Below, in pieces: positions 1 to 63,880 of a stretch of 64,000 nucleotides of DNA. Origin of the DNA: Vairimorpha necatrix (Eukaryota); assembly GCA_036630325.1 (NCBI GenBank), contig CP142727.1:620001-684000 (forward strand), written 5' to 3'. A program made the translations under genes and the position numbers. Positions within the stretch are counted from its first letter, which is position 1. Every line of letters starts with the position of its first letter. The notes under the pieces were generated by a model. That model made no database searches. It saw nothing but the letters and a program-made list of their open reading frames with translations, and was not told the origin of the DNA.

Positions 1-1353
1 TACTGTGGTATCTCACAGGTCAAACATATCAGTTTTACATTTCTTGATTTGTTTATTTTTTTTAACAAAAATTAAAATTTTATGTGAAAATTTTTATAAT
101 TATATGTATTTATAATAAACAAAAAAAATCTTAAAAGTATAATTTTATTTAAATGAGTTGTATTTCAATAAGATAATGACAAATATAAATGTTAAAATAG
201 CGTGTACCGGATCTTACATTAAATTTATTTAAAATGTTAAAAATTCGAAAATTAAAAAATAAACATGTCACACGACATCCTTCCTGTGCCCCTTATAGTC
301 AAGTAGCGCTCTTATACTTGATCCCTCGCTGTCATATCTCAATTTACGGCCGGGTCATGGACGCGATAAATGCGTCATCGCCGAAAAAAATGACAGTTCA
401 TATTAAGTCTATTCGGGAAAATACCGCTATAATATGAGAAAAACCATACAAGAGACCAGCTTTTTCTTCAAAAATGATTAGTTTGACCTTTGTTAAAAAT
501 TTACACAAAAAGATGAATTCTAGTCCAACACGTTGTTTTGGACAAGCATTAATAAACACTTTGTGAAAATAGACTATTTAAACAAGCCGTTCGCCCGGAC
601 ACCAGCTCGCATCACAAAACAAATACTAAATCCAATGTTTCATATCAAAATTACATTTCAGAAATTTGAATATTTTTTGCGTTGTTGAATGTTTATGTTG
701 CCGCCATCACTTGCATTAATCTTCGTTTGACTGAAACGTGATGTTTTAAACATTTCATCTCGACCTGAAACATGATTGTTTCAGGCCGAGAATAAAACTA
801 TATAAAGAAATTGTATAAATAAATATTATGTCTTTTAAAATTAATATTCCATCTAATACCAAGCCTCAGACTACTCCATCTTCGCCTTCAGGTAACATTT
901 TATTTTTGTAATTTAAAATTAATATATTTAATTTTGATTTTTTCACATTATTTATAAACAAAAAAAATTATTATTATTATTATTTTTGATATTTTTACAA
1001 TTTTTTTTATTTTTGATATTTTTACAATTTTTTTTTGAATATTTATTTTGTTCTATAGTAGACAAATTTTAACAAATAACATGATAAACTACAAAATATT
1101 TTTGCATTTTTTGTAAAATTTTTTATTGAATGTTTATTTTGCTTTAAAAGAAAAAAAAATATTTTAAATTTTTATTTGATTTTATAGATAGTTTTTTTTA
1201 CAATAATGATATGCAAAAATTTGTATTGAATTTTTGTTTGTTTGTTTTAGAAACGAATTCAATGAATAATTTTTTTTCATAAAATAATTATTTCACAGTA
1301 AATTCTGGAATTTTAAAAAGCTTTTGTCGAGCAAATTTTTAATTTATTTAATA

Positions 1354-2116
1354 TTTTTTTTCATTACAAGTAAAAAATAAAGGAAAACCTTACAAATAGA
1401 ACAGAAAATTTGAATGTAAAAATTATCCAGCTAGTACTGTGAAATTCTTAGTCATAAAATTCCACCAATAAACCTGCCGATACAGAAAACTTCGCCTTAT
1501 CCATTGGAATTTGATTCCTCTAAAATTTTTTAAATTATACCTCATATCGCGTCCAGGATACCTCACAGATGATATATTTGGCGGCTATGGTTTTCTATAA
1601 TCCGAGAAAAGACATCATCGTACTAACTGCGCTCCACAATCATTTGTATTGTAAACACGGCCCCAAATCGGCCGTATCACCAGCAGGCCTAAATATTGGA
1701 CTGCGTTGACCACTAGTCTCCTTCTAGTTTCAGCACAGATTTACAAAATCTTGTAGGGTGCCTCAAGACCTTCTATTGTTCTCTTCGACTAGTTTCTTAG
1801 TTTGCCCTCTGATTCTACACTCGTATCACAGTCAAAGAGCAAACTTACTATATCCGGCAGATACTTTACGCATCGATCAATAATCATATAACTGATAACG
1901 TTTCGACCTACAGATGAGTGTCTACCTCAAAATGCTACATCCTCTTATGTCTTTACGACTATATGATCAATCAACTATATGATTATCGACAGATATTTTT
2001 ATCATCTGGTTTTTCATTTGCATCATAGGAAGTAGAAACAATTCAGGTGCGCGGGGTTTGTATCCCAACCACTGCCAAATAGAAGCATAGCCTTCGACCA
2101 CTGGGCTAAGGGCACC
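1354..2116 (-). mobile_element. tRNA-derived SINE, diverged near-full-length copy (family of 60860-61640)
   Basis: Minus strand begins GGTGCCCTTAGCCCAGTGGTCGAAGG (A-box), is colinear with the 60860 copy and ends TGTAAGGTTTTCC...CTTGTAATG plus A-run. Confidence 0.8.
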
Positions 2117-2130
2117 TTAAAGAAAGAAGG

Positions 2131-2215
2131 AACAATTCAAGTGCGCGGTTTTCGTAGCCAGTCATCGCTCAATGGAAAATGGAAGCATGCCTTCGACCAC
2201 TAAGCTAAGGGCTCC
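2131..2215 (-). repeat. Second, isolated SINE tRNA-like head directly upstream of the SINE
   Basis: Minus strand GGAGCCCTTAGCTTAGTGGTCGAAGG...CCGCGCACTTGAATTGTT duplicates 2037-2116. Confidence 0.7.
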
Positions 2216-3689
2216 TGGTATTATTTCCATGGAATTTCTTCTTCCTCAAGCAATAAGCACAATAGACTACTGCCTACATCTAGATTTACTTTACATCAAT
2301 ATTATAAGATGTAACTTACAACACTAATATCTTTAATTTCTTCAGTGTCCATATAAACTTAAATTCTTACGTATGTGTATTGCATACTATAATATATTTA
2401 GTTTCTTACCATATCGTTAGACAATGAAGCCGTTTCTTTAAACCAGCATGTTAAAATGATACACTCCCACTTGGTAGACCCGATGTGCTTGATCACTCAT
2501 CAATATAGTCTCTTAAACATAAAATTATTAAAAATAAACAGGTTTGTTTGTTGATTTTTCGTTTGGTTTAAATATTTGTATCACAGCTTGTCCCTGTATC
2601 GCTACGGGATTCAACTCTTCACAGACTTCTATGGTTTCTGAAAATTATTTTCGCTTTTCAACTACAAATTTCAGCTTCATTTCCATCTGAAGCACCACTA
2701 ATTTGTCAGTTGACATATTTGCTAGTATGATATAGCTCATGCCACTTTTTTATCCTACATAAGATAAGTTATTATGATAAATAATTATAATTTTTTCTTC
2801 AATTCAATCATTTTTGCAAATTATGTTTTATTTTATTATTAATATTTTTTTTTATAATAATGAATGTTAACGTTCTTATAAAATTTTAAAATTGAGGAAG
2901 TCAGATATAAAGCATACTCATCAGATTTCAGTCTGGGGCGGCAATATTCATCACTCTTCGGGGGTGAAAGAAAAAAATTATATTTATAGGAAAAAAAAAA
3001 TAAAATTGAAAATGAATAAACAGGCCATTTGACTAATTTTAGCATTTTGTTTTTTCTACTTTTTTATTAAAATATTTTATTGTCTTACAATGATACTTAA
3101 AACATTATGAGTTGTAGTATGATAAACTAAATATTTATTAAGTCTGGAAAGAAATTTAAACACAATTAGAAACTGATGCTTTATTAATGAACAAACTCCC
3201 CCAATAAATTTACAAACTGTAGAAATTACGAAAAATTTTACGGTTCTTAAAATCTTAGTTTTAAAAATTTGTCGTTTCTTAAAATCTTAGTTTTAAAAAT
3301 TTGACGTTTTAAAACATAGAAGAGTTATTGTATGATTTTTTACACTTTCTATAAATTACCAAAGAATGTAAAGAAATACTATGGTTAGAAAAGTATGCTT
3401 ATATTAGAATTTATAATTTTTCTAAAATATACACACCAATATAAAACATAGCTAAGAGCGATAGCCAAATTGATGATATGGTTTTCATATTCTTAAAATT
3501 TATAAGAAATTATGGCTCTGAAAATTTGAAACATTACACAGAGACATAAAAGATACTTAATTACATAATGAGTAATTTTGTAGATCAAATCTTCGCAGAA
3601 GATATTAATAAATTAATAAAATTTCCCAATGTAGTTAAAACAATTGGTCAATAGACTAGAGATTCTTAGCATTGAAATAATAAGAATCC

Positions 3690-28987: not shown

Positions 28988-31900
28988 TGATCCCACAAGA
29001 GTCCGCGGTGATCCTCACAGAATTAATTTCAATATGATTCAATAATGTTCAAACGATGAACATTAACGACTATATTTCCGTGAATTTATAGAGGAGTTGA
29101 CGGCATAGCAACTCTTCACTATTTCGAAAAACTTTCGTATAAGTAAAAGCATTTGTAGATCCTATTTGCAGACTCTACTTAGTTAAAAAATTATTTCTCA
29201 AAATCCAAAAATTGCATCATAGCATGCAATTAAAAAATAGCATAACAAGTAATGTTGAACTTTGAATTGGCCATTAGTCTCAATCGTCAATTTAAAGGGT
29301 TGTTTCAAAGGAACAGTGCTACTAGATACGACAGTAATATTTTTATGTGTAAACGTCCATAGATAGTTTTTAAAATACCTCTAACATAAGAAAATTTGTT
29401 TGTAAGTGTGTGTTAATAGCTGTCTATGTGGTAAAAAAAAGTCTATAAACTCGCTTTTTACGATTATTATCATTATAGGTCGATAAAACACTGTTAGAAA
29501 TAATGGCCATGAGTACATCACTGATGTTCAGAAAGTAAAAATTTTTGTGATCCCACAAGAGTCCGCGGTGATCCTCACAGAATTAATTTCAATATGATTC
29601 AATAATGTTCAAACGATGAACATTAACGACTATTTTCCCGTGAATTTATAGAGGAGTTGACGGCATAGCAACTCTTCACTATCTCGAAAAACTTTCGTAT
29701 ATGTAAAAGCATTTGTAGATCCTATTTGCAGACTCTACTTAATTAAAAAATTATTTCTCAAAATCCAAAAATTGCATCATAGCATGCAATCAAAAAATAG
29801 CATAACAAGTAATGTTGAACTTTGAATTGGCCATTAGTCTCAATCGTCAATTTAAAGGGTTGTTCCTAAACATATTGATATTAAAATTAAAGGTATAAAA
29901 TATAATTTTTTAAATCTCAACATCCCCCTCTTAAAAACATTCGTCTATTATCAATTTCAGCTGAGAAGAATGTCGCTTAATAGTTTTGTTTCCTGTCCTC
30001 ACCAGATATGTGTTGTTTTCTAAAACTTTATAAATTAAACCTCTAACCTTAAATTTGGGTTCTCCCTTTTTGACACCTGTTTCCGTTTTTATAATAACGC
30101 TATCTCCCTCTGAAAATTGTGGTTCGGTTTCTCGGTTTTTATTTCTTTCATTAAATTTTAGTATCTCCTCATATTGTTTTTCCTTCACCTTTTGAAAATT
30201 GGTAGGGTTAAAGCTTCATTCGGAGACATACCTAATTTGCTATGATATATATTGTTATATACATCTAAAACCTTTAAAAGTTTAATTTTAAGATTTTCTT
30301 TTCCCTCTTGTTTGTATATTCCTTCTTGTATTGTCCTATTAAATCTTTCCACTCTTCCATTGGACTGGTGGTGAAATGGTGAGGTATAATGTAATTCGAC
30401 ATTATTACTTGCTGCCCAACATCTTACTTCTTTACTTAGGTTTTTTTCGATTGATCTAAAATTAGTTTATGTATCTTAATTTTTTGATTTATCATATCTA
30501 AAAATTTTATAATTTTCTTACTCTCCCTGGAACTTAGTACCTTTCCAAATCCGAATCGACTAAAGTAATCAATCCCAGACACGATATATTGGTTGTTAAT
30601 TGGACCAATAATATCTATTGCTACTTTCTTTCCAATTGCATGTGACTTTACAAATAAAATTCTTTTCCCTCTTTTAGGATCATACATTTTACACCGAATA
30701 CACCTCTTTAACTCGTTTTTAGTCAATTTTTCCATATCTTTCCAATCGTATTTCTTTTTAAGTTCATTTTGAACTGCTTTATGACCTCTATGGACAAGTT
30801 CTAGGTGTTTATCACGGATAATTTTTCTTTTGTCTTCCTCAGTCATTTCTAATTCTAGATTTTTAATCTCTAATATTTCTTGTCTTGGTGATCTGGATAA
30901 GCAATCCACATGTGGAATGTTTGTTACTTTTCTATATACAACACAATAATTATATTCACTAAGTTTGTCTAACCATCGTTGGATCCGCAAAGATTTTATC
31001 TCTCCCCTATTTAGTGCTTCTAGGGCCTTATGATCAGTGACTGCAGTAAATTCATTTCCATAGAGGAAATATCTGAAATGTTCCATCCCCCATAACATCG
31101 CTAAACATTCCTTTTCGCTGATTCCATAGTTTATCTCAGCAGGTAACAATCTTCTTGAAGCATAAGCAATTGGTACTGGACCACTTCCATGATCCTGTAA
31201 GAGGATAGCTCCTATTCCTGACTGGCATGCATCTGTTTCCAAAATATAAGGTTTTTTGTAATCGGGTTGGGATAGAACCACGCGTGATCTCAATATACTT
31301 TTTAATTTCTTAAAAGCTTTTTCTTCTTCATCTTCCCACTTAAATACAACATCCTTTTTAAGTAAATCATACAATGGCCCGGCAATGATTAAACATTGTG
31401 GAATAAATTTACGATAGTAATTAATCAATCCTAAAAATTCCTCACAAGATTTTCTATTATTTGGTCTTTCTATATTTTCAATTCCTTGTTCAGCAGAAAA
31501 TTTCGGCTTTATCTTGTTATATTCAATAACATGGCCTAAAAATTCTATGTTCTCTTTTTTATGTATAGTCTTTGACTCGTTAATTCGTAGCTCATATTTT
31601 TGTAGCTTGTTAATAACCTTTGTATAGCTTGTATCATGTTCTTCTTCATTTCTACCAAAAATAAGGATGTCATCAACATAGACAAAGCAATTTTTCCCTA
31701 TTTCTTCTTCAAGGACGTTGTCCATAAACCTTTGAAAAACGGCTGGTGCATTTTATACCCCCATGGGCATTACGTTCCATTCGTATAATAAATGATTAAA
31801 TCTGAAAGCAGTTTTGTGTTTGTCTTTTTCAGCCAATTTAATTTGAAAAAATCCATCTTTTAAATCAATTTTTGAAAAATATTTCATGTCTCTAAGACTG

Positions 31901-33328
31901 AATATAAGTCTTTCAATATTGGGGAGGGAATAATTATCTAGATCTACCAATCTGTTGAGCGCTATTAAATTTGTAGTAACTCTTATGGATCCATCCGGTC
32001 TGATCACTGGCCTAAGGTTATTTAGCCATGTTGAATTAGATTTCCTTATATGCCCGTTTTTTAATAACTCATTTATAGAGTTTTGTATTCCTTCCTCCAA
32101 TTTCTTTGGTAAACTATAAACGTGTTCTATTACCTTCTCTCCTGGTTTAGTATTGATCTCACAAATTCTATTGCTCGGTTGTCGAAAAACTTTACAAATA
32201 TCATCTTTTCCTATTAACATTTTAAAATTTTTAACTTTAGGTAAAACATACATTCTGCTTTTAAATATTCTATTACCATATTTGTATTCCACAATAACAT
32301 GGTTTTCAACTAGAAATTCTTCTTCAAGACATGTGAAAAATTTCAAAACATTCATATTCTTATTGAGTTTCAATTTTAAATCATAGACAGCTTGAAGAGA
32401 GATAAAGTTGTAGGCCGCACCCGAATCAAAAACCACGGGGACTTTTTTAGTCCCAACATAAATAAAATTATTTTTATTCGTAATAAAGCTTTGATCTACT
32501 TCCTGACTATCCTTTTCAATCTCATTAATATTCCTTCGATCATCATTAGCCTGTTTATTATTTCGATTCACCCTACAATCCTTAGCTAAATGTCCTGGCC
32601 TTCTGCATCTAAAGCATGTATTTGGTTGGTTCTGTTTAATAAGTCTTAAACCAGCCAACTTGATATTCAATAATGCTTCGTTCTCCATCTCATTTAATAT
32701 TTCGTAAAATTCTTTGTTGATCTCATATTGGGTCGTAAGAAAAATTTTAATCATTTTTAACTTTTTATCTACTCCTGATCTAATAATTTTTCTTCTGTCA
32801 AAATTGGAAATTTCATTTTCATTACATTTAGAAACTACATCTTTGATAAAATCAACAACTTTTTGTTCTTCCTTTTGCTTCATATTGTAAATGTCAAAAA
32901 GCAATGTTTTATTCTCAAATTCTTGTTCCACTTCCTTTTTCCAGATTTCAAACGTTAAAGCAGCTTTCCTTTTATCTTTAAATGTCCTACAATGCCAATC
33001 TAAAATATGAGAGTTAAGTCTGCTTATAAAAAAAATCTAACTTCTCCTCATTGGTCATTTTTGCCCAACTACTCAGAGCCTCTGCTCTTCTAATTTCTAC
33101 TATTATATTGTCTTTGTTTATTTCGTTTTTTATATTCTCCACCATAAACATATTTATTCTAAATTTAAGGGTATAAAATATAATTTTTTAAATCTCAACA
33201 GTTCCAAAGGAACAGTGCTACTAGATACGACAGTAATATTTTTATGTGTAAACGTCCATAGATAGTTTATTTTAATACCTCTAACATAAGAAAATTTGTT
33301 TGTAAGTGTGTGTTAATAGCTGTCTATG
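28988..33328. repeat. Tandem duplication of a ~440-bp unit (period 560 bp): copy 1 28988-29428; copy 2 29548-29866 plus 33206-33328, split by a Gypsy insertion
   Basis: High visible identity between the copies; copy 1 retains the empty site GTTTC at 29302-29306. Confidence 0.9.
29867..33200 (-). mobile_element. Ty3/Gypsy LTR retrotransposon with 56-bp LTRs (33145-33200, 29867-29922); gag-PR-RT-RH-IN, frameshifted
   Basis: TSD GTTCC; PBS TGGTGGAGAAT; PPT GAGGGGGA; CFRCRRPGHLAKDC, FDSGA protease, YVDD, ETDAC RNase H, HHCC/DDE integrase. Confidence 0.93.
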
Positions 33329-41259: not shown

Positions 41260-41610
41260 TGTAAATAGCTCCCGGCTCCATAGTCCTTTTAACTTCGGCG
41301 TTATCTCCTCTCCTTCGGTATTCCAAAGATATGCTTTCTAGCGTCTTCTTTGGCATGATCATTGGATGTACGCTTCTACCTTCTTAAAGATTTCAAGTCT
41401 TGTGATATTAGGTTTGTAAAACTTAGTCACTATACCGCCCAAATGATTACGTAGAAGATATTTTATGTTTTAAAACCATATTTAAGCCCAGTTTGGTTGC
41501 AAGAACATCATGCTTTCTTAACTTTTCATTATTTACTTGCTGTAGATTCTCTTGTTATGAGACACCCATTTCGATTATTATGAACAATTTGTTCTTTTTA
41601 TCTAATACGA
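41260..41610 (-). pseudogene. RLE non-LTR retrotransposon 3' remnant
   Basis: IVLDKR...IIIEMGVS...EKLRKHDVLA...KKTLESISLEYRRR remnants. Confidence 0.7.
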
Positions 41611-41640
41611 TGGCCTGCCAAGAAATAAAATTTGTTTTAT

Positions 41641-42270
41641 TTTTTTCTTTTTCTTGCAAGTAAGAGGTAGGGAGAAACCTTACATAGGGACCAGGGGGGT
41701 TTGGGTGTGATCCTCATCGAACTGGTACTGTGAGATTCTTACTCACTAAAACTTCCTCCATACAATTTGCCGGTGCAGCAAGCTTCGCAGTATCCGGACT
41801 TTGGCTCCAGGAGATCATTTTTGATTTATACCTCAAACCGCGCCCAGAGTGACCTCACAGCGGATATACTTAACGAGCATGGTTATCTATAACCCGAGAA
41901 GAGACATCGTCGCACTGACTCAAAGCTCCCTACAATCATCTGTATTGCGCACACGGCTCTTACACGACCACATCACTAGCCCGGCGTTTTTGTTTGGCCG
42001 CGTTGACCACCAGTCTCCCACTAGTTTCGGCCACCGTTTTACAGAATCTTGTAGGATAGGGCCCACGAGACCTTCTATTGCCCTACTTCGTCTAGTCTCT
42101 TAGTTAGCTCTTGGATCCCACTCTAGAGTGCACCAGCCATGGGCTTCAACTAGGCCGTACCCATTAGATACTTTTATGTATCACTAAGTCAACGAAGGGT
42201 TATACTGCTTTTTGGCTTTGAGGTGCGTTTCTATATTAGATGCTAGCCCTTGTGGCTAGAGCACACAAGT
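41641..42270 (-). mobile_element. SINE copy, 5'-truncated at a Merlin terminus
   Basis: Highly similar to ~61020-61640, including the tail TGTAAGGTTTCTCCCTACCTCTTACTTGCAAG and A-rich end. Confidence 0.88.
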
Positions 42271-42273
42271 TTG

Positions 42274-43502
42274 GGTGTAGGATACATTGAACCCCCCTTG
42301 AAGCGCTTCGATTTTTTTTCGAACCTCAAAATTGAAGTGCAAAAAAAAAGAGGAGCAAGCAAGGGACAAAAATTTCTTTCCACTGTAAACATTAAAAATA
42401 CAAAATAATAAGGCAAAATGGCTTAAAATTAAATTTCAAATCAAGATATATAAAAAACACTTTTTATATATTTCTGGAGGGTTTGTAAGGATTATTTCTT
42501 TTAAAAGTAAACAAATTAAGAAATCAATTTACATCTTTTCCAGTCCGATATCATGCAGGAATCACTCTTTTACACCAGCCCATGTTCCTTCAATTGTGTT
42601 AGTATAAAACATTCTATGGATTCATAAACCAAGGGAATGGTTAAAGGTATGGTTTTTGTATATGCCTAAGTGATTTGAATTTATACACCCTCTCCAACAT
42701 TCAGTATATGTAATACTTCCGGGATGTACATGTTCTTTTATGAATCTTTCGAGAGTCACGGCTTTTCTATTTTTAACTTTAAGTAAGACTAAGCCTCGTT
42801 CTGTCGTTCTTTCCACCATCCCAAGTACCCATACGCCGTCAACTTTGTGGCCTCTGTTGTATTTTCTCTTTCCGAATTTAAATTCATCAATCTCTACAAT
42901 ATTACCTGGACCTCTTATTTTTTATTACCATTTATATGCTTACTAAAGTTTTTGATAATTCTATAAATTGTTTTCGATTAAAACTATTAATTTTTTAATT
43001 GTTTTTATGGCCGTATTTTAACAAAAAGAAATATGACCTGGCATTTTATCAGCCATGGCAATTTAGATCCATAGAAGGATTCTTTTTTGTTATCGTAAAT
43101 TCTTTTCTGCAACTTTTTGTGGTACATCTCATTAGATTTTGTATTTCTATACGTCTGTGTACATTCCCACTACAATGTGAACAAAACCTTAAATTTAAAG
43201 TAGATTTCAATATTTTCTCAACGTCCTTGTAGAATTCTGTGATTTTTAAGAGGAAAACAAGAAAATTATTATAAAATAAATGAATTTGAATGTAGGTAAA
43301 AATTTTAAGTAGGCACTTTTTATTTTTAGAGCTTGGTTAAAAATTTAATTTTAAGCCGTTTTATATTATTATTTTGTATTTTTAATGTTTAAAATGGAAC
43401 AAAATTTTTGTCCCTTTCTTGCTCCTTTTTTTTGCACTTCAATTTTGGGGTTCGAAAAAAAATCGAAGCGCTTCAAAAGATGGGGGTCTAATGTACCCCA
43501 CC
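42274..43502 (-). mobile_element. Merlin DNA transposon with ~165-bp imperfect TIRs, degenerate
   Basis: Long inverted repeats (CTTGAAGCGCTTCGATTTT...); IVEIDE.KFGKRKYNRG, GMVER and NTIEGTW remnants; no TSD seen. Confidence 0.82.
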
Positions 43503-43945: not shown

Positions 43946-46900
43946 TGTATTTATTTTCCATAATGGGGTTCAAAAATATAAGAATATATAACATCCCCCT
44001 CCAAGACGGTTAGTCTCCTACGTCATCATCAACCCTAAGCAGATCTTTTAAGTCATAGTGCCTCTTCTTAACTATCGTCCATTCACTAATTTTACTACAT
44101 AAGAATCCCCTGGACACACAATCCTAATCGTCCCAATATCCAAAAACCTACCTTTTTCATATTTATTAGACCCCTTTAAATTTTCACTCTTCGCAACTCG
44201 CACTCTCTGTCCTTCGACGAACTTGTCACTATATCTCTTTTTAAATCGACTACTATAATCTCCTTCTGGTCCATTTCTTAGCATTACATTGCCCGTATTA
44301 TCTTTAACTGCCTCAAATGGTGTGCATCCTAGACCTTCATGGTAACTATTATTATAAATCTCAAAGGCCTTCATAACTCTTTCTTCAAAGCTATTTTTGG
44401 GATTCATTTTTAAAACAGATTCTCTCAACGTACCAATAACTCTTGCAACTCTCCCATTGCTTTTATGTGATTCAATACTGGTCTTTCTGTGAGTTATATC
44501 CAACTTTCTGCATAACTCTCTAAATTCCTCATTTGCAAATTCTCTTCCATTGTCCGATATGATTTCTTCTGGTCTTTTACCATTTCTACACAAATTTCTA
44601 TAAATCCAGTTATCGAGCTAGCACGCTTATCTTTCAACACGCAACCCCATGCGACTCTCGTATAGTAATCAATGACGACCAAGACAAATTTACCCAAATC
44701 TCTATAATCGATTAAATCTATTGCCACCTTTTCTAGGTATCTACTTGTCGCAATAAAATCGCATCCTCCTGATTTTTTCCTATTGTATTTTTGGCATTTT
44801 TCACATTTTTTATCATCATTTTTATATCTTCCTTAATTCCTGGCCAATAATAGTCAAACTTCATAGCATAATAGACACTTCCTAGTCCTCTGTGGGCCTG
44901 TTCTTCGTGGTACCTCTTCATTAACTCTAACCTATCACCTACTGCAGGTATTTCCGCTCTACGACCAGAATTGAAAATTCCAGTGCTCCTTGTCCCCGAC
45001 TTTCTCAACGTGCTTTTACCATTTTCCCCGCTATCTGTTTCACTGTTCTATGTCCAATTTATCTCTCTTAGGTTCATTTTCCTCATGGATTCTGCTCAAT
45101 GCATCAGAAACAACCATCTGATCGGGTTGCCTGTACTCGATTTCAAAATCAAACTCTTGGATCATCTCTATCCACCTGTTAATCCTATTATTATTAAAAC
45201 ATGGCTTTCTTCTTATTTCTGCTAAAGCCTTATGATCAGTTTCAACCTTAAACTTTCTTCCTCTCAATTCATACTCAAACTTCTTTATGCCAATATACGG
45301 CATACATCTCTTTTCGCTAATTCCGTATCTAGTTTCAGTCGGAGTAAATTTCTTTGATGCCCATTGTACCGGCACCCATTCCTCTTTTTCATTTTTCTGC
45401 ATAAGTACAGCTCCCATACCAATATTACTCGCATCCATTCTTAATAAAAATTCGTTCTCGTAGTTAACAATCCTCAATTTCCCTAAATTCTTAAGCACTT
45501 TTTTCATATTCTCAAATTCAATATCCAACTCCTCAGTCGAATTCCAACTTTTGTTTTTCACTCTGGCTAAAGTTCACTTAGACACGCAAAAATCGATATA
45601 GGCTTTTTTTGTTTTTTTTTGCCCCTTTTTTTCAAAAATGGAGGAGAGAAAATGTTAAGGAAGGAACAAAAAAAACAAGTAGAATAAAAATTTTAATAAT
45701 TCATCAAAGACGGAACCCGATGAATTTCAAAGGAGCATATACCTAAACAAATAAATTTTTGCGCTATTTTGAGACCTATTTCTATTGGGTATGGAATTTT
45801 TGAGGGAACGCCAATTACCTTCTATAGTATTCGTATGAACTCCCGTATTTGGGTCCCTGAAATGCAATGAGTGATTAACCATGTGGTGTTCATTGAATAT
45901 TGTATTCAAAGAATGGTAAGCCCTCCGCATATCGCTATATATAGTACTTTTCGTACTTACATATTTCACTAAAAGATTAGTAAGCGTTTCTTTATTTCGT
46001 TTTTTAATATATAGTATTATGATTTTTCGTTCGATGGTACGTTCGACCATGCCAAAACACCAGAAGCCCTTCACTAATTATCTCTATGGTTTTTATTCTT
46101 TCCAACTTTTGTCTCATCAATTTCAACTATTATACCTTCTCCGCCCATAATACTTAGAGAAGATAAATACTTGTCGTTAATATTCATTTCTTTTAATTTT
46201 TTTAATAATAATGTCATGTGTTTTTTTGGACAACCTAAAATTTGAGAGATATGCTTTCGAGAATAATCAAGAACCCACATATTAAGTATCTGCATACATA
46301 ATATATGGTTGAGTTTACAATTATCGAAGAACGTATCATGCCAGATGGAAATCGATTTTTTACAACCTTTCCAAGTACATTTTAAGTTATAACTGCCTTT
46401 TCTTTCTTTCCTCATTCTATTAAAACATATAACACAAGATTGATCTTGTAATTTGATTATTAAATTATTATATTTGATTTCAATTTCTTCTCTTGTATGA
46501 ATTCTCTCCTCCATTTTTGAAAAAAAGGGGCAAAAAAAAACAAAAAAAGCCTATATCGATTTATGCGTGTCTAAGTAAACTTTAGCCTTCACTCTTAAGC
46601 AATCTGTCATGTGTTTCGTTTCCTCTACGAGTTCTTTATAAATCCTCTGAACCAACCACTTAATCCTAAAAATCTTCTTACGTCGGTTACATTTTGCGGC
46701 TTCGAAAATTCTAATGCTTCATTCTTTTTTATCTCGGATGGCATCATATCCTGCCCATTCAATGTTACTCCTAATAATATTCAGATTGACGATACTGTAT
46801 CTTCTTTGAGTTTAATCTCATGTTATTCTCTTCTAACAGTCTCATTGCCTCTAAAAACAATTTGTCGTGTTCTGCTCTAGTCTTGGCATGTATCACAATA

Positions 46901-48113
46901 TCATCCATTCAAATTTCTATTTCTCTTCTCAAATACTTCTCATAAATCTTATTCATAATCCTTTGCATGATCTGTGGCGAATTTTTAAACCCCATGACCA
47001 TGCTGTTCCACTCGTATACTTTCTTATCAAACTCAAACGCGGTCTTATGCTTATCCGCTTCTTCTATCTCAACCCCATAAAAGGCTTCTTTAAGGTCAAT
47101 AACACTCATAATCTTCGAGCCTTGGTAAACCTAATAATATCCCTGATGTTACACAACTCGTATGGATCCTTCTCTACTAAATCGTTCAGGTCCATAAGAT
47201 TACTGACCAAACGTATGCTCCCATCCGGCTTAACTATAGCCTTTATCTGATTCTGCCATTCAGAGGTTGATCTTTTAATTACATTTCTTTTCTCCAAATC
47301 CTCTAAGTGCTTCATTAATTTGTTTTTATGCGCTTGAGGAATCATCTGTCCCTTCCTAACGACTTTTTTCCCTGCTTCTGTCTTGATTTTACATTACTTA
47401 ATTTCCCCCTTATTTTCATCAATAACGTTTTTAAATTTTTTCTTAACATCTTCTAAAGTCAGCCCCTTGAATGTTGTCGTTTTTTAATTTCTCTTCTTAA
47501 TGTCTTTAACTTCTCCAGCTCGTTTCCATTGTGAACCTGGCCTAACTTCTGTCTGTTCTTTTGTCTTTTACCAGCCCACGTATTCCTGTAATATTTCCGT
47601 CGCTGCTGCTACTGTCCTCTTGAAATATTTTCTCACATTATTGTTTATTTCTCTCCTCTCTGTATCTATTATAACATATTTACTTTTATATCCTAACCTT
47701 TCACAATAAAAACATCTCATTGTCCTCAAATACCGTTTCCTACGCTCTATATCCTCTGTATATATTTCTTTTGACAAATTCAGAGTGACCCCTTCAATCA
47801 TTCTAAATCTCTCTTCTCCATCTTCATAATCCTTTACAATCTCTTTTAGCCGTATTCCTATCATGTCATGGTAATCCTCTAAACCTATATTCATAACCAT
47901 AAAATTTTTAAGCTCCAAACTTCCCCTTTCAAAAATAATTTTCTTCATCGCTTCTACACTGTATAACTTTGATCTCATGCATAATAATCTTATATTCTTG
48001 CAATAGTTTTCTGGCCTCTTGACCACAGCCAACACTTGTTAACTCACGATTTGTTATCGCCCCCATGTATTTATTTTCCATAATGGGGTACAAAAATATA
48101 AGAATATATAACA
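43946..48113 (-). mobile_element. Degenerate Ty3/Gypsy element with 48-bp LTRs (48066-48113, 43946-43993), interrupted by a Merlin
   Basis: LTRs differ at one position; PBS TGGGGGC; PPT GGAGGGGGA; RT (IDLKEAFY, MGFKNSP), RNase H (DASNIG) and integrase (SDNGREF) fragments; flanks TATAT/TTTAA are not a clean TSD. Confidence 0.9.
45565..46587 (-). mobile_element. Merlin DNA transposon (1023 bp) nested in the Gypsy pol
   Basis: ~85-bp TIRs GGCTAAAGTT...; 8-bp TSD TTCACTCT; transposase 46514-45727 with one frameshift near 46077 (EIDETK, YSD, HTNTIEGNW). Confidence 0.95.
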
Positions 48114-49405: not shown

Positions 49406-49759
49406 CTACGAAAAATTTATTTTTTTTTCAGAATTCAATACATTTGCCCACTTATATAAATACAACAAATATTTGCGATCTACATCGTCGCAGTTTTTAT
49501 TTTTTCTAGCTTCTGGTGTCATGTTTCTTCTTTTCTTTTGAAACCACCATTTAATTGAATTTATATTCAAATCGAGAAGCACGCTCAAGTCTTCTACTAA
49601 ATTCAATGATGGCCATTGAACTCTTTCATAGGTGTGAAAGAGCACATACTCTTTAACCTGCGTATAGCTTCTTGGTTTGTATCTTTTGTTTTCTTTTTTT
49701 AGTTTTATCAATCCAAATAGAGCCTCCGCCAAAGTATTATCGTCTAAGAAGTTGTTCAT
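49406..49759 (-). CDS. Divergent homeodomain protein
   Basis: YVLFHTYERVQWPS...LDLNINSIKWWFQKKRR; paralogous to 26127-26507. Confidence 0.8.
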   Translation of the reverse strand: MNNFLDDNTLAEALFGLIKLKKENKRYKPRSYTQVKEYVLFHTYERVQWPSLNLVEDLSVLLDLNINSIKWWFQKKRRNMTPEARKNKNCDDVDRKYLLYLYKWANVLNSEKKINFS

Positions 49760-49897
49760 ACCCCGTGGAGAAATAAATAATTAAGTACTTAAATATTAAT
49801 ATAAAATTATATTTAATATATTATGTTACTAATTAAGACTGTTTTTTCGAAAAAAGCAGGGAAGCTAATTAATGCAACTTTAACAATAATAATATAT

Positions 49898-52800
49898 TGT
49901 AGGGTTTAGAACCCTTAATAAATAAATGGTTAACATGGCGAACACAAGGATGAACAGGGAAACAAGAGAGTCCCGTAGTCAAGAGGCTAGAACATTAGAG
50001 AAAGAGGCAATTAGGATAGATAAGAGACTAAAGTTAATATTGAAAGTTGAGAAAGTTGAGTGGAAAGATGTTATGGATTTGGCATCTGCGAACTTGCAGG
50101 ATTATATTTTTGAAAATTTTTGTGACGGAAGGAGCAGTTGGGAGGAAATTTATAAAGGCTTACAAAAAGGAGCAGAATTTGAGAGAGAGTCAGAAGAAAG
50201 ACAAGAAATGATTAAAGAGATTATGGATAAAGTGTTGAAAGAGTTTAGGGAAGAAAGAAAAGAAAATCTTAGGATGTATAGGAAAAGAAGAGAAATCAGA
50301 GAAACTACAAAATGTTTTATATGTAAGAAAGAAGGGCATTACGCTAGAGAATGTTATGAAAGTGTAGCTGGTAGGGAAAAATATAAAATTAAAAAGGAAC
50401 AAGTTTTACAGAAAGAACCAATTATCAACAATGAAGGGAAAAGATGTAAAACAGTAAATAAGTTAGAAAATTTAATTGAAAAGTATCCGGAAGTTTTTAA
50501 AGAATCAGAAGAAAAGATAAAATATCTCACAGGAGAGAAGTGTCCAATAAATACTAAGCAAGGTGAAAAGGTTGTGAAAAGAGGGCAGAATGTGCCATAC
50601 TACCTTAGGGTGAAATTTGAGGAGTACTTGAATAAGTTGGAAAATAGAGGGGTTATAAGACGTTCCAAAAGTGAGTGGAGGAGTCCAATAAGAGCACTTG
50701 AAAAACCAAATGGGGACGTAAGATTGGTAAGCAATTTGATGGCGTTAAACGATTTGGTTGACAAGGACCCGTACTCACTACCGTTAATTAAGGATATTAT
50801 GAGAGCCACACAGGGGTCAAAAGTATTTACGGTTATCGACTTAAAAGAAGGGTTTTATCATATTGAGATTGAGGAGCACCATAAGCACAAAACAGCATTT
50901 GAAGTGAATGGTCGAGTATACGAATGGAATAGTATGGTTATGGGGTTTAAGAATTCGCCTCATATAATGCAGAGAGTAATGGACAGAGTTTTAGATGAAT
51001 TCAGAGGTAAAGGCGTGGAAGTATATATGGATGATATAGTTATTCATGGTAAAGACGTAAGAGTGCATGACGAGTTACTAGAGAGGGTAATTAAAAAGTT
51101 TAAAGAGTGTGGGTTGAGAATAAACCAAACAAAGATACAATACAAAAAAGATGAGGTGATGTTGCTGGGAGTAACAATTAATGGGGAGGTCATGGGACCG
51201 AATGAGATTAAAAAGCAGGAGACATTGGAATATAGAAAACCTGAGAATGTTAGAGAGTTAAGAAGATTTTTAGGACTAACTGGTTGGTTTAGAGACTTTA
51301 TTCCCAACTATGCGTATAGAACAGTAAGGCTTACTGAGGCTTTAAAGAAAGATGTTAAGTGGAATTGGACGGAGGATATGGATAGAGCTTTTGAGGATAT
51401 GAAGCAAGGCTTGAGAGATATGAAAAAGTTGAAGATTCCGGACGGAAAAAAAGCTATTTAGAGTAAGAACTGATGCGTGTGATACGGGGATCGGAGCAAT
51501 TCTATTACAAGAAAATAAAGAGGGTGAGTGGATTCCGATACAATGGGCATCGAAAATGTTGACTCCTATCGAGCGAAGATATACGATAAGTGAGAAGGAG
51601 ATGTTGGCGGTGTTTTTTGGAATAAAGAAGTTTGAAAGTGATTTGAGAGGAAGGAAATTTCATTTGATGACGGATCATAAAGCATTAGCAGAGATCAGAA
51701 ATAAGCCATACTTCAATAATAACAGAATAAACAGATGGGTAGAACAGATACAAGAGTTTGACTTTACAATAGAGTATGTGAAAGGGGAGTTGATGACAGA
51801 TGCAGATGCGTTAAGTAGGCAGTATGATCAGGTAGAAGTTTCGGATGAACAAAAAGAAAAGGACAACAAGAGAAAAGAAGTGATCGAAAAACAAATTTTG
51901 GGAAAAAAGCAGAAACATATTAAATAAAAGGACGGTAAACAGTATTGGGAATTTTCCACAGGTGAGGTGAAAGAGATATTGAGCCTAGATAGTAGAGAAC
52001 ATGAAATAACAAGAGTACATGAGGAGTTAAACCATAGAGGTGTCAAAGGCACTTATTATAACATTAAACAAAGATGGTATTGGCCTGGTATGAAAGATCA
52101 TATTAATAAGGTAATTAAGAATTGTGAAATATGTGGGATTAACAATAGGAAAAACACAGGAGGATGTGATTTCGTAGTAACTAGAAAGAAATTGGAGAAA
52201 GTGGCGTTGGATTTAATGGACATAGGTGGAGAGAATAGGTATGTGTTACTGGGTATTGATTACTTTACTAGAAGGTTGTGGGGTTCGAATTTGAGATGTA
52301 AAGAGAGTAGTGAAGTTATAGAGGTATTACAAAAGTGGATAAAGGAAGATGGATTTCCAGAGGAATATGTGACAGACAACGGAAAAGAGTTTGTAAGTAA
52401 TAGATTTAAAGAATGGTGTAGTATTAATGATATTAAACATAGGAAAGTGGGCTTAGAAGCTCATAGGAGTAATGGTAGAATCGAGAGATGCATCAGAACT
52501 ATAAGAGAGACATTGATAAAGCAAAATGATGGGAATATTTCTGAAAAGATAGAAAGAGCAATCAAAGGATATAATAATACACTACATACAGCAATAAAAT
52601 GTACGCCGATGGAAGCGTGGAGAGATCAAACTGCTGAAGTTATAATTGAAAATGATGAAAATGGAAAATATGCTGGTCGGTTCAAGAGAAGACACAGAGA
52701 GACATTTACAGTAGGCCAAGAGGTAAGAATCGCTAGGAGAGAAAATTTAGGTACACGTGCGAAAACAGACAAGGGAAGATTCACGGGTCGCGGAAGGATC

Positions 52801-52973
52801 GTAGCTATAAGTGAAAATGATTCATATATTGTGAGACTACTGGATGGTAAAATTGTTAAAAAGAGGCATTATGATTTGAAAGAGATAAGGAAGAGTTGTT
52901 TAGAAGATGGAGAGACTACCCGTCTGGAGGGGGGATGTAGGGTTTAGAACCCTTAATAAATAAATGGTTAACA
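49898..52973 (+). mobile_element. Ty3/Gypsy LTR retrotransposon, 3076 bp, identical 38-bp LTRs (49898-49935, 52936-52973)
   Basis: TG...CA LTRs, TSD TATAT, PBS TGGCG, PPT GGAGGGGGGA; CFICKKEGHYAREC, YMDD RT, TDACDTG RNase H, HHCC and DDE integrase; only two lesions (A7 run 51446-51452, TAA 51925-51927). Confidence 0.96.
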
Positions 52974-53990
52974 TATATTATAATGTAGAAATTTACAAAT
53001 TGGTGTAATATGATTTGTATATGCAATAAAATGGTTTTCATGATTATTGTTCATTGATTTATCATTATTAATATATATATATATATTGATCGATTACATT
53101 TGTTTACTATTATATCAAATATAAGCTAAAGCATTTTATATAATTAATTAATACAACTTTTAAAAGCATTATTTTATATAAACATTCTAATAATTGTCAT
53201 TTCAAATATTTATGAATATTTTATTGGTGAATTTAATCAGACAACATCCATGACACAAAAAATTACATAAAAAAATATATTATTGATGTATTTTCATAAA
53301 ATTCATTTGTTTTGGTAAATAATCAAAACGTGTCAAATATTTTGATGTTTTATTAATTATGCGTCATAAAATATAAAAATGTGTAATATTTATACAAAGA
53401 ATTCGCATTTATATGGTAATTTATGATTCATGTTGCTTTAAAAATATTCCAGAGTTTTGAAAGAAATATGGAATATAACTGCTAACTTTACGTTCTTTCT
53501 AAAAAAAACTAAAAAATAAATATAAATAAAATGTTTGGCTGTATTGGAATACATAATCCTTAGTATTAACTCAACAAGAAATGGATTTTTATTAAAAAAG
53601 TAAACTAATAAATTAATAATTAATATGTACATTCTTACTGTATAATTTACAAAAAAATCAAACTTGCTCAATAAATTTTATCAATAACAACTTTAACTTG
53701 TACAGTATTTATTTTACAATTGAGGTCATATTAGTAACCACTATAAATACCATTTTTTAGATTTTCCCTCCTTCAAATCGAAATAAATTAAAGCAGTGTG
53801 ATAAAATTAGTAAAAAATTAATTTTATTATTCTTAAAATTTCTTGACAATGCAATTAATGCTATTAATTTTTCTTCTATTTGCGACATTTTTTAGTTTAC
53901 ACAAATCAAGTCTTTTATAACTATAAGATCTTGGATAAATCCTAAATTAGTTCTAAATAATATTTTTGGCTGATAAGTATAGATTTTTTG

Positions 53991-54120
53991 GGCATAAGTA
54001 AACATTAGCTACAAAAAAATCGATATAGGTTTTTTTTTGTCTTTTTTGCCCCTTTTTTTTCAAAAACAGAAGAAAGAAAATGTTAGGAAAAAAACAAAAA
54101 TAGAAAAAATTAAATAAATA
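53991..54120. mobile_element. Orphan TIR of the 45565/61898 Merlin family
   Basis: GGCATAAGTAAACATTAGCTACAAAAAAATCGATATAGG...GCCCCTTTT matches those TIRs. Confidence 0.75.
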
Positions 54121-60859: not shown

Positions 60860-61640
60860 GGAGCCCTTAGCCCAGTGGTAGAAGGCGATTCTTCTATTGA
60901 GCAACAGCTAAATTCGATTCTCAAGGGCACCAAATTGTTTCTACTTTCTATGATGCAGTTGGAACAACTCAGATGATGAAAATGTCTACGATAATCATTA
61001 AGTTGATTCAATAAAACTTTTGTGTGTCCAGCCACAAGGGAATTATCATCTAGTGTAGAAACGCACCTCAAGGCCAAAGCAGTATTACCCTTGCGACTTA
61101 ATGATTTATAAAAGTATCTAATGGGTACGGTCTAGTTGGAGCCCATGGATGGTGCACTCTAAAGTCCGTTCCTAGAGCTAACTAAGAGACTAGAGTAAGT
61201 AGGGCAATAGAAGATCTCGTGAACACTATCCTACAAGATTCGTATCAAGATGGCCACACTAGTTGGAGACTGGTGGTCAACGCAGCCCAATAAAATGCCG
61301 GGCTGGGGATGTGGTCGTGTAAGGAGCCGTGTGTGCAATACAAATGATTGTAGGGACCTTTGAGTCAGTACGATGATTTCTCTTTTCGAGTTATAGATAA
61401 CCATGCTCGTTAAGTATATCCGCTGTGAGGTCACTCTGGGCGTGATTTTAGGTATAAATGATAAATGTTCTCCTGAAGCCAAAGTCCAATGGATACGGCG
61501 GAACTTGCTGCCCGGCAAGCTGTATAGAGGGAGTTTTAGTGAGTAAAAATTTAAAAGTACCAGCTGGATGAGGATCACACCCAAAACCCCCTGGTCCCTA
61601 TGTAAGGTTTCTCCCTACCTCTTACTTGCAAGAAAAAAAA
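60860..61640 (+). mobile_element. Full-length tRNA-derived SINE (~780 bp)
   Basis: tRNA-like head 60860-60932 (A-box TAGCCCAGTGG, degenerate B-box ATTCGATTC, acceptor-like GGAGCCC/GGGCACC), A-tail, 13-bp TSD AACTACCT(C/T)TAAC. Confidence 0.9.
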
Positions 61641-61897
61641 AACTACCTTTAACTTGCCACGGTCAAAATAAAAATAGTCTTTTGTTGACTGATATTTGAA
61701 CGAATAACAAAAAAGTATAGATTTCATATAAGTCACTGTGGTATTCCCCTCTTGTCTAGCTTCTTCGTCTAATCCAACGCGGACAACTTTTGACTCTTAT
61801 AGTACAATTTTTCATTTTCAAGGTTGTAGATCACAAAAAGATTTTCGTTTACATTATATCAGCGTTGTAAAATTATAGTCATATCATTAGTTGACTG

Positions 61898-62920
61898 GGC
61901 TGAAGTAAGCATTAGCTACAAAAAATCGATATAGGGTTTTTTTGTTTTTTTTTGCCCCTTTTTTTAAAAAATGGAGGAAAGAATTCGGACAAGAAAAGAA
62001 TTGGAGATCATATATAATGATCTAATAATTAAGAAAGAAAATAAAAAATGTAGCGTCTGTAATCAAAAAATGTAGCAAAGAGGGGAGCAAAGAAGTCTCA
62101 TAAGGTGTCCATGGAGCTCATGTAAAAACACAATTTCAATTTGGAATGGAACTTTCTTTCAGGATTCTAGGCTAAATCACATCAAAATATCACAAATAAT
62201 AAATTTATGGATTCTAGGTTATACACGTAAGTCCATTTCTCAAGTTTTAGGTTGTACTAAACCTTCTATATCTTCCGTGCTAAAAAAGTTAAAAGAAATG
62301 AGTCTTTATGATAAGTATTTATCTAGTATAGGGACTATTGGAGGCGATAATCTTATAGTGGAAATTGATGAGACTAAGATTGGGAAGAATAAATACAATA
62401 GGGGGAAGTTAGTAAAAGGATTTTGGTGTTTTGGAATGGTTGAACGTACCATCCAACGTAGAATCATAGTAGTATATATCAAGAAAAGAGACGAAAGAAC
62501 ACTTACTGAACTTCTTTTAAAATATGTAAGTAGAAGCAGTATTATATATAGCGATATGTGGAGAGCGTATCATTCTTTATATACAATATTTAACCAACAT
62601 AATATGGTTGATAATACATTACATTTAGAGATCCGAATACAGGAGTACATACCAATACCATATAAGGTAATTGGAGATCTCTAAAACATTCTATACCAAA
62701 TAGAAACTGATCATCTAATAGCGCTAAACTTTATTTATTTAGATATTTGATCCAAATAAACTTTAAAACACCAGTTTTTGAAGCTTTATTGAAATATTTA
62801 TTCTAGTTTTTATTTTTGTTCCTTCCTCATCATTTTCTTTCCTCCATTTTTTAAAAAAAGGGGCAAAAAAAAAACAAAAAACCCTATATCGATTTTTTGT
62901 AGCTAATGCTTACTTCAGCC
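61898..62920 (+). mobile_element. Merlin DNA transposon (1023 bp), transposase disrupted
   Basis: ~85-bp TIRs GGCTGAAGTAAGC...; 8-bp TSD GTTGACTG; EIDETKIGKNKYNRG and YSDMW motifs. Confidence 0.95.
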
Positions 62921-63554
62921 GTTGACTGTTTTCGTTCTTGCATAAATAGATAGTTTTAATATCAACGTTTGAATTTTATATTTGAATCTGGTATTTGTTT
63001 AAATGACTGAACAGTTTAATTTATAGTTTTCATTGTATTGAAATTGTTTTATTAAAAAACTTCGAAATGATTAAAACTTAATGTTATTTTATCTTACCAA
63101 GAGATCAATCTTTAATTTATATTTTTACCAAGAAAAACAAAAGAATATTAAAGTCTTAGTTATTTTAGTTCGATTTTACACTTTAACATCGACAATAAAA
63201 TATATTCGTTTCGTTCTATTAGAAAAAATTTACTTATTTATATAATTATAAACTTTTAATTGGATTTTATTGTTCACCTGTCAAAGTCAAAAATTTCTCC
63301 CGCTTATGTAATTGATGTTTTTTAATATAAATATCAATATAAACTGCTAGAAATACTAAAATTTCAAATCAAATCTTGATTTTTACTTCTAACAAATCTT
63401 TTAACATAATGATTAAAACAAACGATTTACTACTTTTTATTAAATGTTCTAACATTCACATATTTTTTAATAACATGATTTCCTAATATTTCACTTAAAA
63501 TATTAGATCTGCGATGTTTAGAGCATAGACAAATATTAATATAATCTATATTAA

Positions 63555-63880
63555 AACAAGTATGATGTCTTTGCAATCGACTGGGCAGAAGATATGGGGT
63601 TTAAACTGAATAATTCCAGACTTAATTACTTGTGACGGGAAAGTGACTAAGTTTCACAAATCATACACCACAAGACCTGACATCCCTATGAAACTAGAAG
63701 TGTACGTGAAGATGTTCACGATGAAGAAGACGCTAGAAAGCATTCTTCTGGACCATCGAAGGAGAAGAGACAAAGCCGACGTGGGAAGGACTATGGAGTC
63801 TAAAAGCTACATAAAAGCAGAAGACGCCAACGCGGCACCTATCAAAAGCAAACTAGAAATATTTACTACATTAAGCAAAC
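63555..63880 (+). pseudogene. RLE non-LTR retrotransposon 3' remnant
   Basis: KYDV...VTKFHK...KKTLESILLDHRRR; homologous to 41260-41610. Confidence 0.65.

Follow-up and report, generated by a model that had tools for sequence, protein, structure and literature searches.

A Ty3/gypsy-type retrotransposon with identical 38-bp long terminal repeats in the microsporidian Vairimorpha necatrix

Can a long terminal repeat (LTR) of 38 bp be the natural end of a retrotransposon instead of the remnant of a longer repeat, and can an element bounded by such repeats still move? This question is raised by a 64,000-nt stretch of the V. necatrix genome (assembly GCA_036630325.1, contig CP142727.1, positions 620,001 to 684,000 of the forward strand; hereafter the window), in which a Ty3/gypsy-type element, here called E1, occupies positions 49898-52973 of the + strand (3076 bp). 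The analysis described below concluded that E1 is very probably real and inserted recently, as one of the many copies of a family of Ty3/gypsy type, with LTRs that are naturally 38 bp long and that would work by imitating a gene boundary of the host type.

The 38-nt string TGTAGGGTTTAGAACCCTTAATAAATAAATGGTTAACA, which begins with TG and ends with CA, occurs exactly twice in the window (about 30% G+C), as the 5' LTR at 49898-49935 and as the 3' LTR at 52936-52973, both on the + strand and with 0 mismatches. The chance expectation for this pair was 0.00, and two matches were obtained in none of 100 dinucleotide shuffles. The repeat search itself returned 39 nt, the next base being a coinciding T, and no further sequence was shared on either flank. 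Direct reading located the two copies of a 5-bp target-site duplication (TSD), TATAT, at 49893-49897 and 52974-52978 (+); direct TG...CA repeats and a duplication in the range of 4-6 bp are as found in Ty3/gypsy elements. A putative primer-binding site (PBS), TGGCGAACACAAG, is located at 49936-49948 (+), its TGG starting at 49936, the first base past the 5' LTR, and a polypurine tract (PPT), GGAGGGGGGA, at 52926-52935 (+), directly 5' of the 3' LTR. Both sites lie within coding sequence, the former spanning the codons M-A-N-T-R and the latter E-G-G. In-frame ATG codons are found at 49926 (LTR position 29) and 49935, and the stop codon TAG at 52945-52947 corresponds to positions 10-12 of the 3' LTR. 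A single polyprotein frame, broken twice in the E1 copy, therefore starts in one LTR and ends in the other. All of these terminal features (the identical LTRs, the perfect TATAT duplication, the adjoining TGG and PPT, and the frame running from 49926 or 49935 to 52947) had been described in the original prediction and were reproduced here. The original prediction had also held that homology extending past the 38 bp, or long LTRs in other copies, would speak against it; the flanking homology ended at 38 (39) nt, and the LTRs of related elements were found to be 38-58 nt long, as described below.

Profile matches on E1 were obtained for zf-CCHC, RVT_1 (2.1e-31), RT_RNaseH (7.8e-31), Integrase_H2C2 (8.8e-15) and rve (9.2e-11). 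The first part of the reading frame, at 49926-51461 (+), encodes a Gag-like N-terminus, a CCHC knuckle at 50310-50354 and reverse transcriptase (RT) at about 50700-51179 (RVT_1, amino acids 259-418 of this part). It is followed on the same strand by the RNase H domain at 51451-51759 and by integrase (IN) at 51928-52947, the latter with an H2C2 domain at about 51994-52149, an rve core at about 52219-52443 and a C-terminal part. This collinear order of RT, RNase H and integrase is that of Ty3/gypsy elements and agrees with the assignment made in the original prediction. The zf-CCHC match, for which the cut-off is 20.8 bits, scored 22.6 bits when the fragment was used and 20.3 bits with the entire open reading frame (ORF), and within the knuckle (amino acids 129-143) C130, C133 and C143 were invariant, and H138 nearly so, in 12 aligned sequences. 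The best protein relatives of E1 are annotated from Nosema granulosis (70% identity), V. necatrix, V. apis, Pseudoloma, Pancytospora and Enteropsectra, and the named homologues carry gypsy, 17.6 or Tf2 polyprotein annotations. The N-terminus M..M-A-[N/S] is kept among the E1 homologues, which is expected if the CA|TGGC junction is constrained.

In order to find out whether E1 has moved, contigs of four public runs (X1-X4) were aligned to window positions 49700-53200, the depth of these Logan contigs not being equal to copy number. In one X1 contig of 156 nt (107 + 49), 49891 is followed directly by 52973; the 3081 nt missing between them equal the 3076 bp of the element plus 5 nt for one TATAT. 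At the joint 7 letters are ambiguous (the TSD and one matching letter per side), and 0 letters lie between. Because this contig holds the unoccupied target site, the E1 insertion is polymorphic. The 38/38 identity of the LTRs dates nothing alone, since the repeat is so short, and the recency of the insertion is deduced from the empty-site contig. The two long element contigs of X1 have depths of 60.6 and 65.3, whereas the flank and empty-site contigs have depths of 3.1-3.5 (about 18-fold lower), and this difference points to a multi-copy family. Contigs with other upstream sequence, three in X1 and one in X2, join the element precisely at 49898 and represent loose ends of other copies. An X1 contig and a loose end in X2 match 49898-49948 only and diverge thereafter; this shared stretch, the LTR with a 13-nt module, probably reflects the extent of the putative PBS.

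The E1 frame is broken at two places. At 51446-51452 (+), in a stretch of seven A, it shifts from 0 to +1, and at 51925-51927 (+), past the RNase H domain and ahead of integrase, it meets an in-frame TAA. At 51446 one letter is absent in all covering depth (65.3/65.3 in X1, 61/61 in X2 and 5.52/5.52 in X3), and at 51925 G is found for T, again in all covering depth (65.3/65.3, 143.4/143.4 and 4.9/4.9, respectively). Because both lesions are absent from them, the dominant copies in X1-X3 contain one uninterrupted frame of about 1006 codons, and the extra A and the TAA are either private to the E1 copy or assembly errors. Five more substitutions, at 50355, 50982, 51383, 51569 and 52343, are common to X1, X2 and X3, three of them (50355, 50982 and 51569) being also present in X4. 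The near-intact state and the recent activity proposed in the original prediction were thus supported, the former by the lesion-free dominant copies and the latter by the empty-site contig and the multi-copy depth. Two other accounts of the breaks were considered and rejected: a programmed +1 frameshift at the A run, as the site lies inside RT/RNase H and other copies simply have one A fewer, and ciliate-type read-through of TAA, as the homologues are microsporidian and other copies have G at 51925.

In X2, the depth over the first approximately 470 nt and the last approximately 570 nt of the element exceeds that of the middle 4- to 20-fold (1228-1393 and 465 at the termini, 61-143 in the interior), and several X1 and X2 contigs have internal skips, such as 51616 to 52442 and 50532 to 50868. 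These deeper ends and skips may represent internally deleted, non-autonomous derivatives with the same mini-LTR ends.

Further gypsy elements in the window were found by tblastn with the E1 proteins. E2, at 43946-48113 on the - strand, is a degraded relative of the E1 lineage (45-60% amino acid identity in RT, 72% nucleotide identity in blocks). Its 48-nt TG...CA LTRs, at 43946-43993 and 48066-48113, differ by 1 mismatch, with a PBS-like TGGGGGCGATAAC whose TGG lies next to the 5' repeat and a PPT, GGAGGGGGA, ahead of the 3' repeat. E2 contains many stops and is split by a 1023-bp Merlin/IS1595 element at 45565-46587, without which it measures 3145 bp. E3, at 29867-33200 on the - strand, is a third gypsy element of 3334 bp, which is more distant (39% in RT), has a protease, and is degraded like E2. 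Its 56-nt LTRs, at 29867-29922 and 33145-33200, are 91% identical and are bounded by the TSD GGAAC at 29862-29866 and 33201-33205, with a PBS-like TGGTGGAGAA and a PPT, AGAGGGGGA.

Five E1-related loci (L001-L005) were found in metagenome and genome collections. None of the five has paired terminal repeats, because the loci are truncated or degraded, and usable 3' ends were obtained from L004 and L003 only. L004, a contig of another organism in a bacterial metagenome-assembled genome (MAG) bin, encodes a polyprotein 65% identical to that of E1 at the amino acid level. At its 3' end the block ACTACCCGTCT is followed by a purine tract and by a 38-nt segment bounded by TG and CA, after which the similarity to E1 stops; this 38-nt LTR has the same place after the PPT and is identical to the E1 LTR at 29/38 positions. 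In a set of 12 loci, terminal repeats were found in L008 only. This element, from the same bin as L004, is complete; it measures 3364 bp, its two 58-nt LTRs are identical, and its one ORF (1088 aa) begins at the last base of the 5' LTR and extends into the 3' LTR. Furthermore, 14 of 58 long E1 homologues have 976-1031 aa on contigs of only 3035-3192 nt, so that no more than some tens of bases fall outside the frame; such a pattern would be expected if complete elements of that size were common. No relative was found in viral contigs, where the protein query gave 7 pattern stretches, 0 of them confirmed by tblastn, and alignment A3 gave 110, of which 0 were confirmed.

The block ACTACCCGTCT is 11 nt long and lies just 5' of the PPT, at 52915-52925 in E1, 44003-44013 (-) in E2 with one change, 2703-2713 in L004 and 3201-3211 in L003. 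It is kept at the nucleotide level though the proteins of these elements are only 45-65% identical, and it may represent an extended plus-strand priming or packaging signal instead of a coding constraint.

Elements with LTRs of similar length are contained in a published table. In Anncaliia algerae, 'Aalg retro L' is listed as a complete element of 3127 bp with an LTR of 50 bp and an ORF at 32-3049, and 'retro S' as having an LTR of 45 bp, while the LTRs of the remaining complete LTR elements are 73-272 bp long (Parisot 2014 Table S1, PMC4202319). The main text of that paper uses 'LTRs' once and 'protease' 0 times, and leaves LTR length and the missing protease without comment (PMC4202319); it places microsporidian elements in Ty3/gypsy-specific groups. 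Compared with retro L, E1 has an LTR of 38 instead of 50 bp (that of retro L being 12 nt longer), an ORF at 29-3050 instead of 32-3049 and a total length of 3076 instead of 3127 bp, and both have a single polyprotein frame starting in the LTR. Judged by eye on its initial 60 nt, the consensus of retro L carries CCC immediately 5' of the ATG and the GTTAACA|TGGCG junction of LTR and PBS that is seen in E1; it begins like the LTR of E2 and shares the MA-S/N start with E1. Retro L appears to be the nearest described relative of E1; it is from another genus and is a consensus, not a dated insertion.

E1 has two features of the mini-gypsy lineage, namely a length of about 3.1 kb with LTRs of at most 50 bp and a single frame from LTR to LTR, which is continuous in the dominant copies. 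Its host is a microsporidian of the Nosema/Vairimorpha clade, and it belongs to a microsporidia-wide lineage of elements of about 3.05-3.15 kb, the product of which, as judged from their sequences, is a single Gag(CCHC)-RT-RNaseH-IN polyprotein that has about 1000 aa and lacks a protease. E1 is thus not a one-off but a member of a widespread microsporidian lineage, with comparable LTR lengths in the 2014 supplementary table.

How so short an LTR might work is suggested by its content. The E1 LTR reads TG-TA-[GGGTT TAG AACCC]-TT-AATAAATAA-ATG-GTTAACA, in which the GGGTT-TAG-AACCC hairpin with its CCC box occupies positions 5-17, the stop codon TAG forms the loop, the CCC box lies 11 nt ahead of the ATG, and two overlapping AATAAA at positions 20-29 are located between the CCC box and the ATG. 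The GGGTT/AACCC hairpin is retained in L004 with a T-A to T-G change. As judged by eye, E1, E2, E3, L008 and retro L each have a CCC located 3-21 nt 5' of an ATG, which is itself inside the LTR or spans its end.

Similar signals surround host genes. Excerpts of one study describe a CCC-like (rarely GGG-like) motif immediately 5' of the ATG in microsporidia including N. ceranae, often preceded by an AAATTT-like signal, 5' untranslated regions of less than 7 nt in E. cuniculi, and AAUAAA near the stop codon of microsporidian genes (Peyretaillade et al. 2009, PMC2803860). The window was checked by means of 9 non-transposon ORFs, comprising 8 of the 13 ORFs of at least 150 aa (the other 5 being transposon ORFs, which were dropped) and a homeobox ORF. 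Within 20 nt 5' of the ATG, CCC is present in 6/9 of these ORFs and GGG in 2/9, with neither in the remaining 1, while CCC is present in only 8.1% of all 20-mers. AATAAA overlaps the stop codon in 4/9.

The LTR may accordingly be viewed as integrase end sequences (TG...CA) placed around one host-type gene boundary. In this scheme, which is drawn from the arrangement of motifs, the CCC box would act as the promoter, transcription would start a few nt 5' of the ATG at position 29, U3 would cover approximately positions 1-20 (the integrase end and the CCC box), and R and U5 together would cover approximately the last 10-17 nt. Because AATAAA sits at or before the transcription start, it would be effective only in the 3' LTR, where it would follow just past the stop codon (positions 10-12), as in host genes. 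A tRNA annealed to TGGCGAACACAAG would prime the minus strand and GGAGGGGGGA the plus strand, both from coding sites, and integration would produce the 5-bp duplications. This division of 38 bp into U3, R and U5 is a predicted one. Self-priming of the Tf1 type was also considered and was rejected, as no complement of the PBS was found within the LTR by eye. The LTR is apparently so short because one host-style mini-promoter and poly(A) signal suffices in compacted genomes.

The proteins raise the further question of whether the family moves by its own means. No protease family was found at E<=1 in E1 or in its homologues P0001, P0008 and P0011, in contrast to what is usual in Ty3/gypsy elements, whereas the positive control, E3, gave RVP_2 with 20.9 bits; nor was a D[ST]G motif found in the approximately 60 unconserved residues between the knuckle and RT of E1. 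The model of the N-terminal 128 aa of Gag contains a few helices, one of them 56 residues long (pLDDT 76.9), and a Foldseek search of it against PDB gave 0 matches at E<=0.001 among the 68 listed; only weak rows for nucleocapsid knuckles were obtained, a result that says little for or against a capsid. Polyproteins of the E1 type have about 1000 aa and those of the E3/L008 type about 1090 aa, and this difference of about 90 aa would fit the loss of a protease. Because no protease is present in E1, the autonomy of its family is not established; its polyprotein may work unprocessed, be cut by a host enzyme or borrow a protease.

It could be argued that the 38-bp repeats are stumps of longer LTRs left by a deletion, a chance pair or a mis-assembly, as textbook LTRs have at least 100 bp and the window is AT-rich and rich in repeats. 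We regard this as hardly credible. The pair was reproduced in 0/100 shuffles, the start and stop of the ORF lie inside the LTR, an arrangement that homologues share (N-terminal M..MA[NS]), what is missing at the empty site is exactly the element and one TSD, and the element is covered by contigs from four runs. Five more related elements, the published ones included, have LTRs of 38-58 nt, and because E2 (48 nt), E3 (56 nt), L004 (38 nt), L008 (58 nt) and the A. algerae table entries (45-50 bp) also have short LTRs, the deletion-stump reading was rejected; the 38-bp LTRs of E1 are natural, and a short LTR is a trait of the family. Nor is E1 likely to be an old, dead relic of a family that is no longer mobile. 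In that case the 38/38 identity would be uninformative, as small divergence cannot register in 38 nt, and the frameshift and stop codon of the E1 copy and the degraded neighbors E2 and E3 could be read in the same way. Public data nevertheless contain the empty-site allele, the 5-bp TSD is perfectly kept, only 7 substitutions and 1 indel, common to three runs (six of these eight to all of X1-X3), separate E1 from the dominant copies, and these copies have an open frame, so that a dead family appears very improbable.

A recently mobile family with natural mini-LTRs might still be non-autonomous, having lost its protease and perhaps its capsid as well, and be mobilized in trans by relatives of the E3/L008 type, the mini-LTR then serving only as a recognition and strand-transfer module. 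This possibility is doubtful, but it is the more serious of the alternatives. It agrees with the failure to find a protease in E1 or in 3/3 close homologues tested while E3 has RVP_2, with the presence of an E3-type element in the same window, with the lack of any match at E<=0.001 among the 68 listed for the Gag N-terminal model, and with the deep X2 termini and the contigs of LTR and PBS only, which suggest derivatives using E1-type ends. On the other hand, the dominant copies retain intact RT, RNase H and IN, open frames of about 1000 aa in many organisms argue for selection on the family's own proteins, and the LTR ends and PBS of E1 differ from those of E3, which makes cross-recognition by IN and RT unlikely and would leave only the protease to be borrowed. 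It can be proposed tentatively, with somewhat more confidence than dependence on relatives but still short of an even chance, that the E1 lineage is the smallest self-sufficient LTR retrotransposon known, with 3.08 kb, LTRs of 38 bp, an R of approximately 10-17 nt, neither a protease nor a recognizable capsid fold, and an unprocessed Gag-RT-RH-IN polyprotein; such a lineage would be mobile today in microsporidia of the Nosema clade and missed by standard finders, so that LTR loads would be under-counted.

Several observations weigh against the conclusion that E1 is a recent copy of a mobile family with natural and functional 38-bp LTRs. The only tRNA in the window (Thr-AGT) does not fit the putative PBS of E1. 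E2 has no clean TSD, and L001, L002, L003 and L005 have no terminal repeats. The 5' LTR of L004 is not on its contig, which starts inside gag, and a single copy of its 38-mer is present in its bin. In L008 the flanks, AATAC and GTTTG, do not form a TSD, possibly due to a chimaeric metagenome assembly. If cleavage follows the AATAAA (positions 20-29) by 10-20 nt, it would be placed at the LTR end or slightly past it, so that the transcription start alone may define R. No RNA run was present among the 15 runs listed as containing E1. X1 may be the sample behind the window assembly and in that case would not be independent for sequence, although the empty allele would still be valid. Finally, without a protease of its own, the family may rely on protease-bearing elements or on no processing. 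The balance of the evidence given above still makes a genuine, recently transposed E1 with natural 38-bp LTRs highly probable.

E1 can be compared with better-known elements. In the canonical fungal elements, Ty3 of Saccharomyces and Tf1/Tf2 of Schizosaccharomyces, the LTRs measure several hundred bp, a protease is encoded, gag and pol are separate or frameshifted, and the whole element is about 5 kb long. They are like E1 in the order RT-RNaseH-IN, TG...CA LTRs and a 5-bp TSD, and their CCHC Gag and TGG PBS adjoining the LTR have putative counterparts in E1. E1 differs from them by its 38-bp LTRs, its single frame, its length of 3.08 kb and the lack of a protease. The plant TRIM/SMART elements are likewise very small LTR elements with short terminal direct repeats, but they are non-coding and non-autonomous and their repeats still have about 100 bp or more, whereas E1 encodes RT, RNase H and IN. 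Closer to E1 are Nbr1-Nbr8 of Nosema bombycis, which are Ty3/gypsy LTR retrotransposons of the same microsporidian clade and which are cited, in excerpts of two papers, as nested among compact genes (PMC2387174, PMC3614468). The description of Nbr1-Nbr8 (Xu et al. 2006, Int J Parasitol, PMID 16797019) may already include short LTRs and may bear on priority. In a non-exhaustive search of the literature, no discussion of LTR length in microsporidia was found, and the 38 bp of E1 appear to be the shortest LTR documented for a coding LTR element in the literature so searched, the table of Parisot 2014 giving 45-50 bp. Elements of this kind are known in print only as table entries without analysis; what is new here is the evidence for a polymorphic insertion, the proposed explanation of the LTR by host-type promoters and the lineage-wide absence of a protease.

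The original prediction suggested that such elements would be missed by common LTR finders, and this suggestion is reasonable. LTRharvest and LTR_FINDER apply a 100-bp minimum LTR by default. An excerpt of the EDTA paper states that LTR candidates of <100 bp are discarded (PMC6913007). Because pipelines that discard LTRs of <100 bp will miss these families, the repeat content and transposon activity of microsporidia, among them parasites of bees, silkworms and crustaceans, would be under-annotated. The family would also set a practical lower bound for a working LTR, in that approximately 38 bp could hold integrase ends, promoter, start, stop and poly(A) signal, given host signals that are equally compact. 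It offers a natural system for asking how little R homology first-strand transfer needs, whether an LTR element can manage without its own protease, and how genome compaction shapes the parasites of the genome itself.

Additional features were observed in the window and in the collections. The - strand ORF at 49406-49759 (117 aa) matches a homeodomain weakly, with 21.3 bits at a cut-off of 22.9, and has a GGG box before its ATG; the insertion point of E1 lies 138 bp upstream of this ATG, and the ORF and E1 are divergently oriented. The Merlin-type element nested in E2 is a DNA transposon of 1023 bp, whose 86-nt terminal inverted repeats are 98% complementary and which encodes a transposase fragment matching DDE_Tnp_IS1595 (E 3.5e-14); at least 2 full copies are present in the window, at 45565-46587 and 61898-62920, with a fragment at 54005-54119. 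Directly upstream of the 5' LTR of E3, 128 nt (33201-33328) recur with 95-99% identity at 29302-29428, approximately 440 nt past its 3' LTR, and an adjoining 300-nt segment is duplicated with 98% identity at a spacing of 560 nt (28988-29287 and 29548-29847); E3 sits in a locally duplicated or repeat-rich patch. An inverted similarity of 78-91% over several blocks of 35-218 nt connects 41276-42457 with 61044-63798, approximately 19 kb apart, and represents either another repeat family or a segmental inverted duplication including the Merlin-like element. The loci L004-L018 come from two MAGs, G001 and G002, labelled Clostridium sp. and Turicibacter sp., which contain 22 and 10 matches, respectively, to eukaryotic retrotransposon polyprotein, some of them in open frames of about 900-1900 aa; this indicates that both bacterial bins contain contigs of eukaryotic, partly microsporidian-like, origin.

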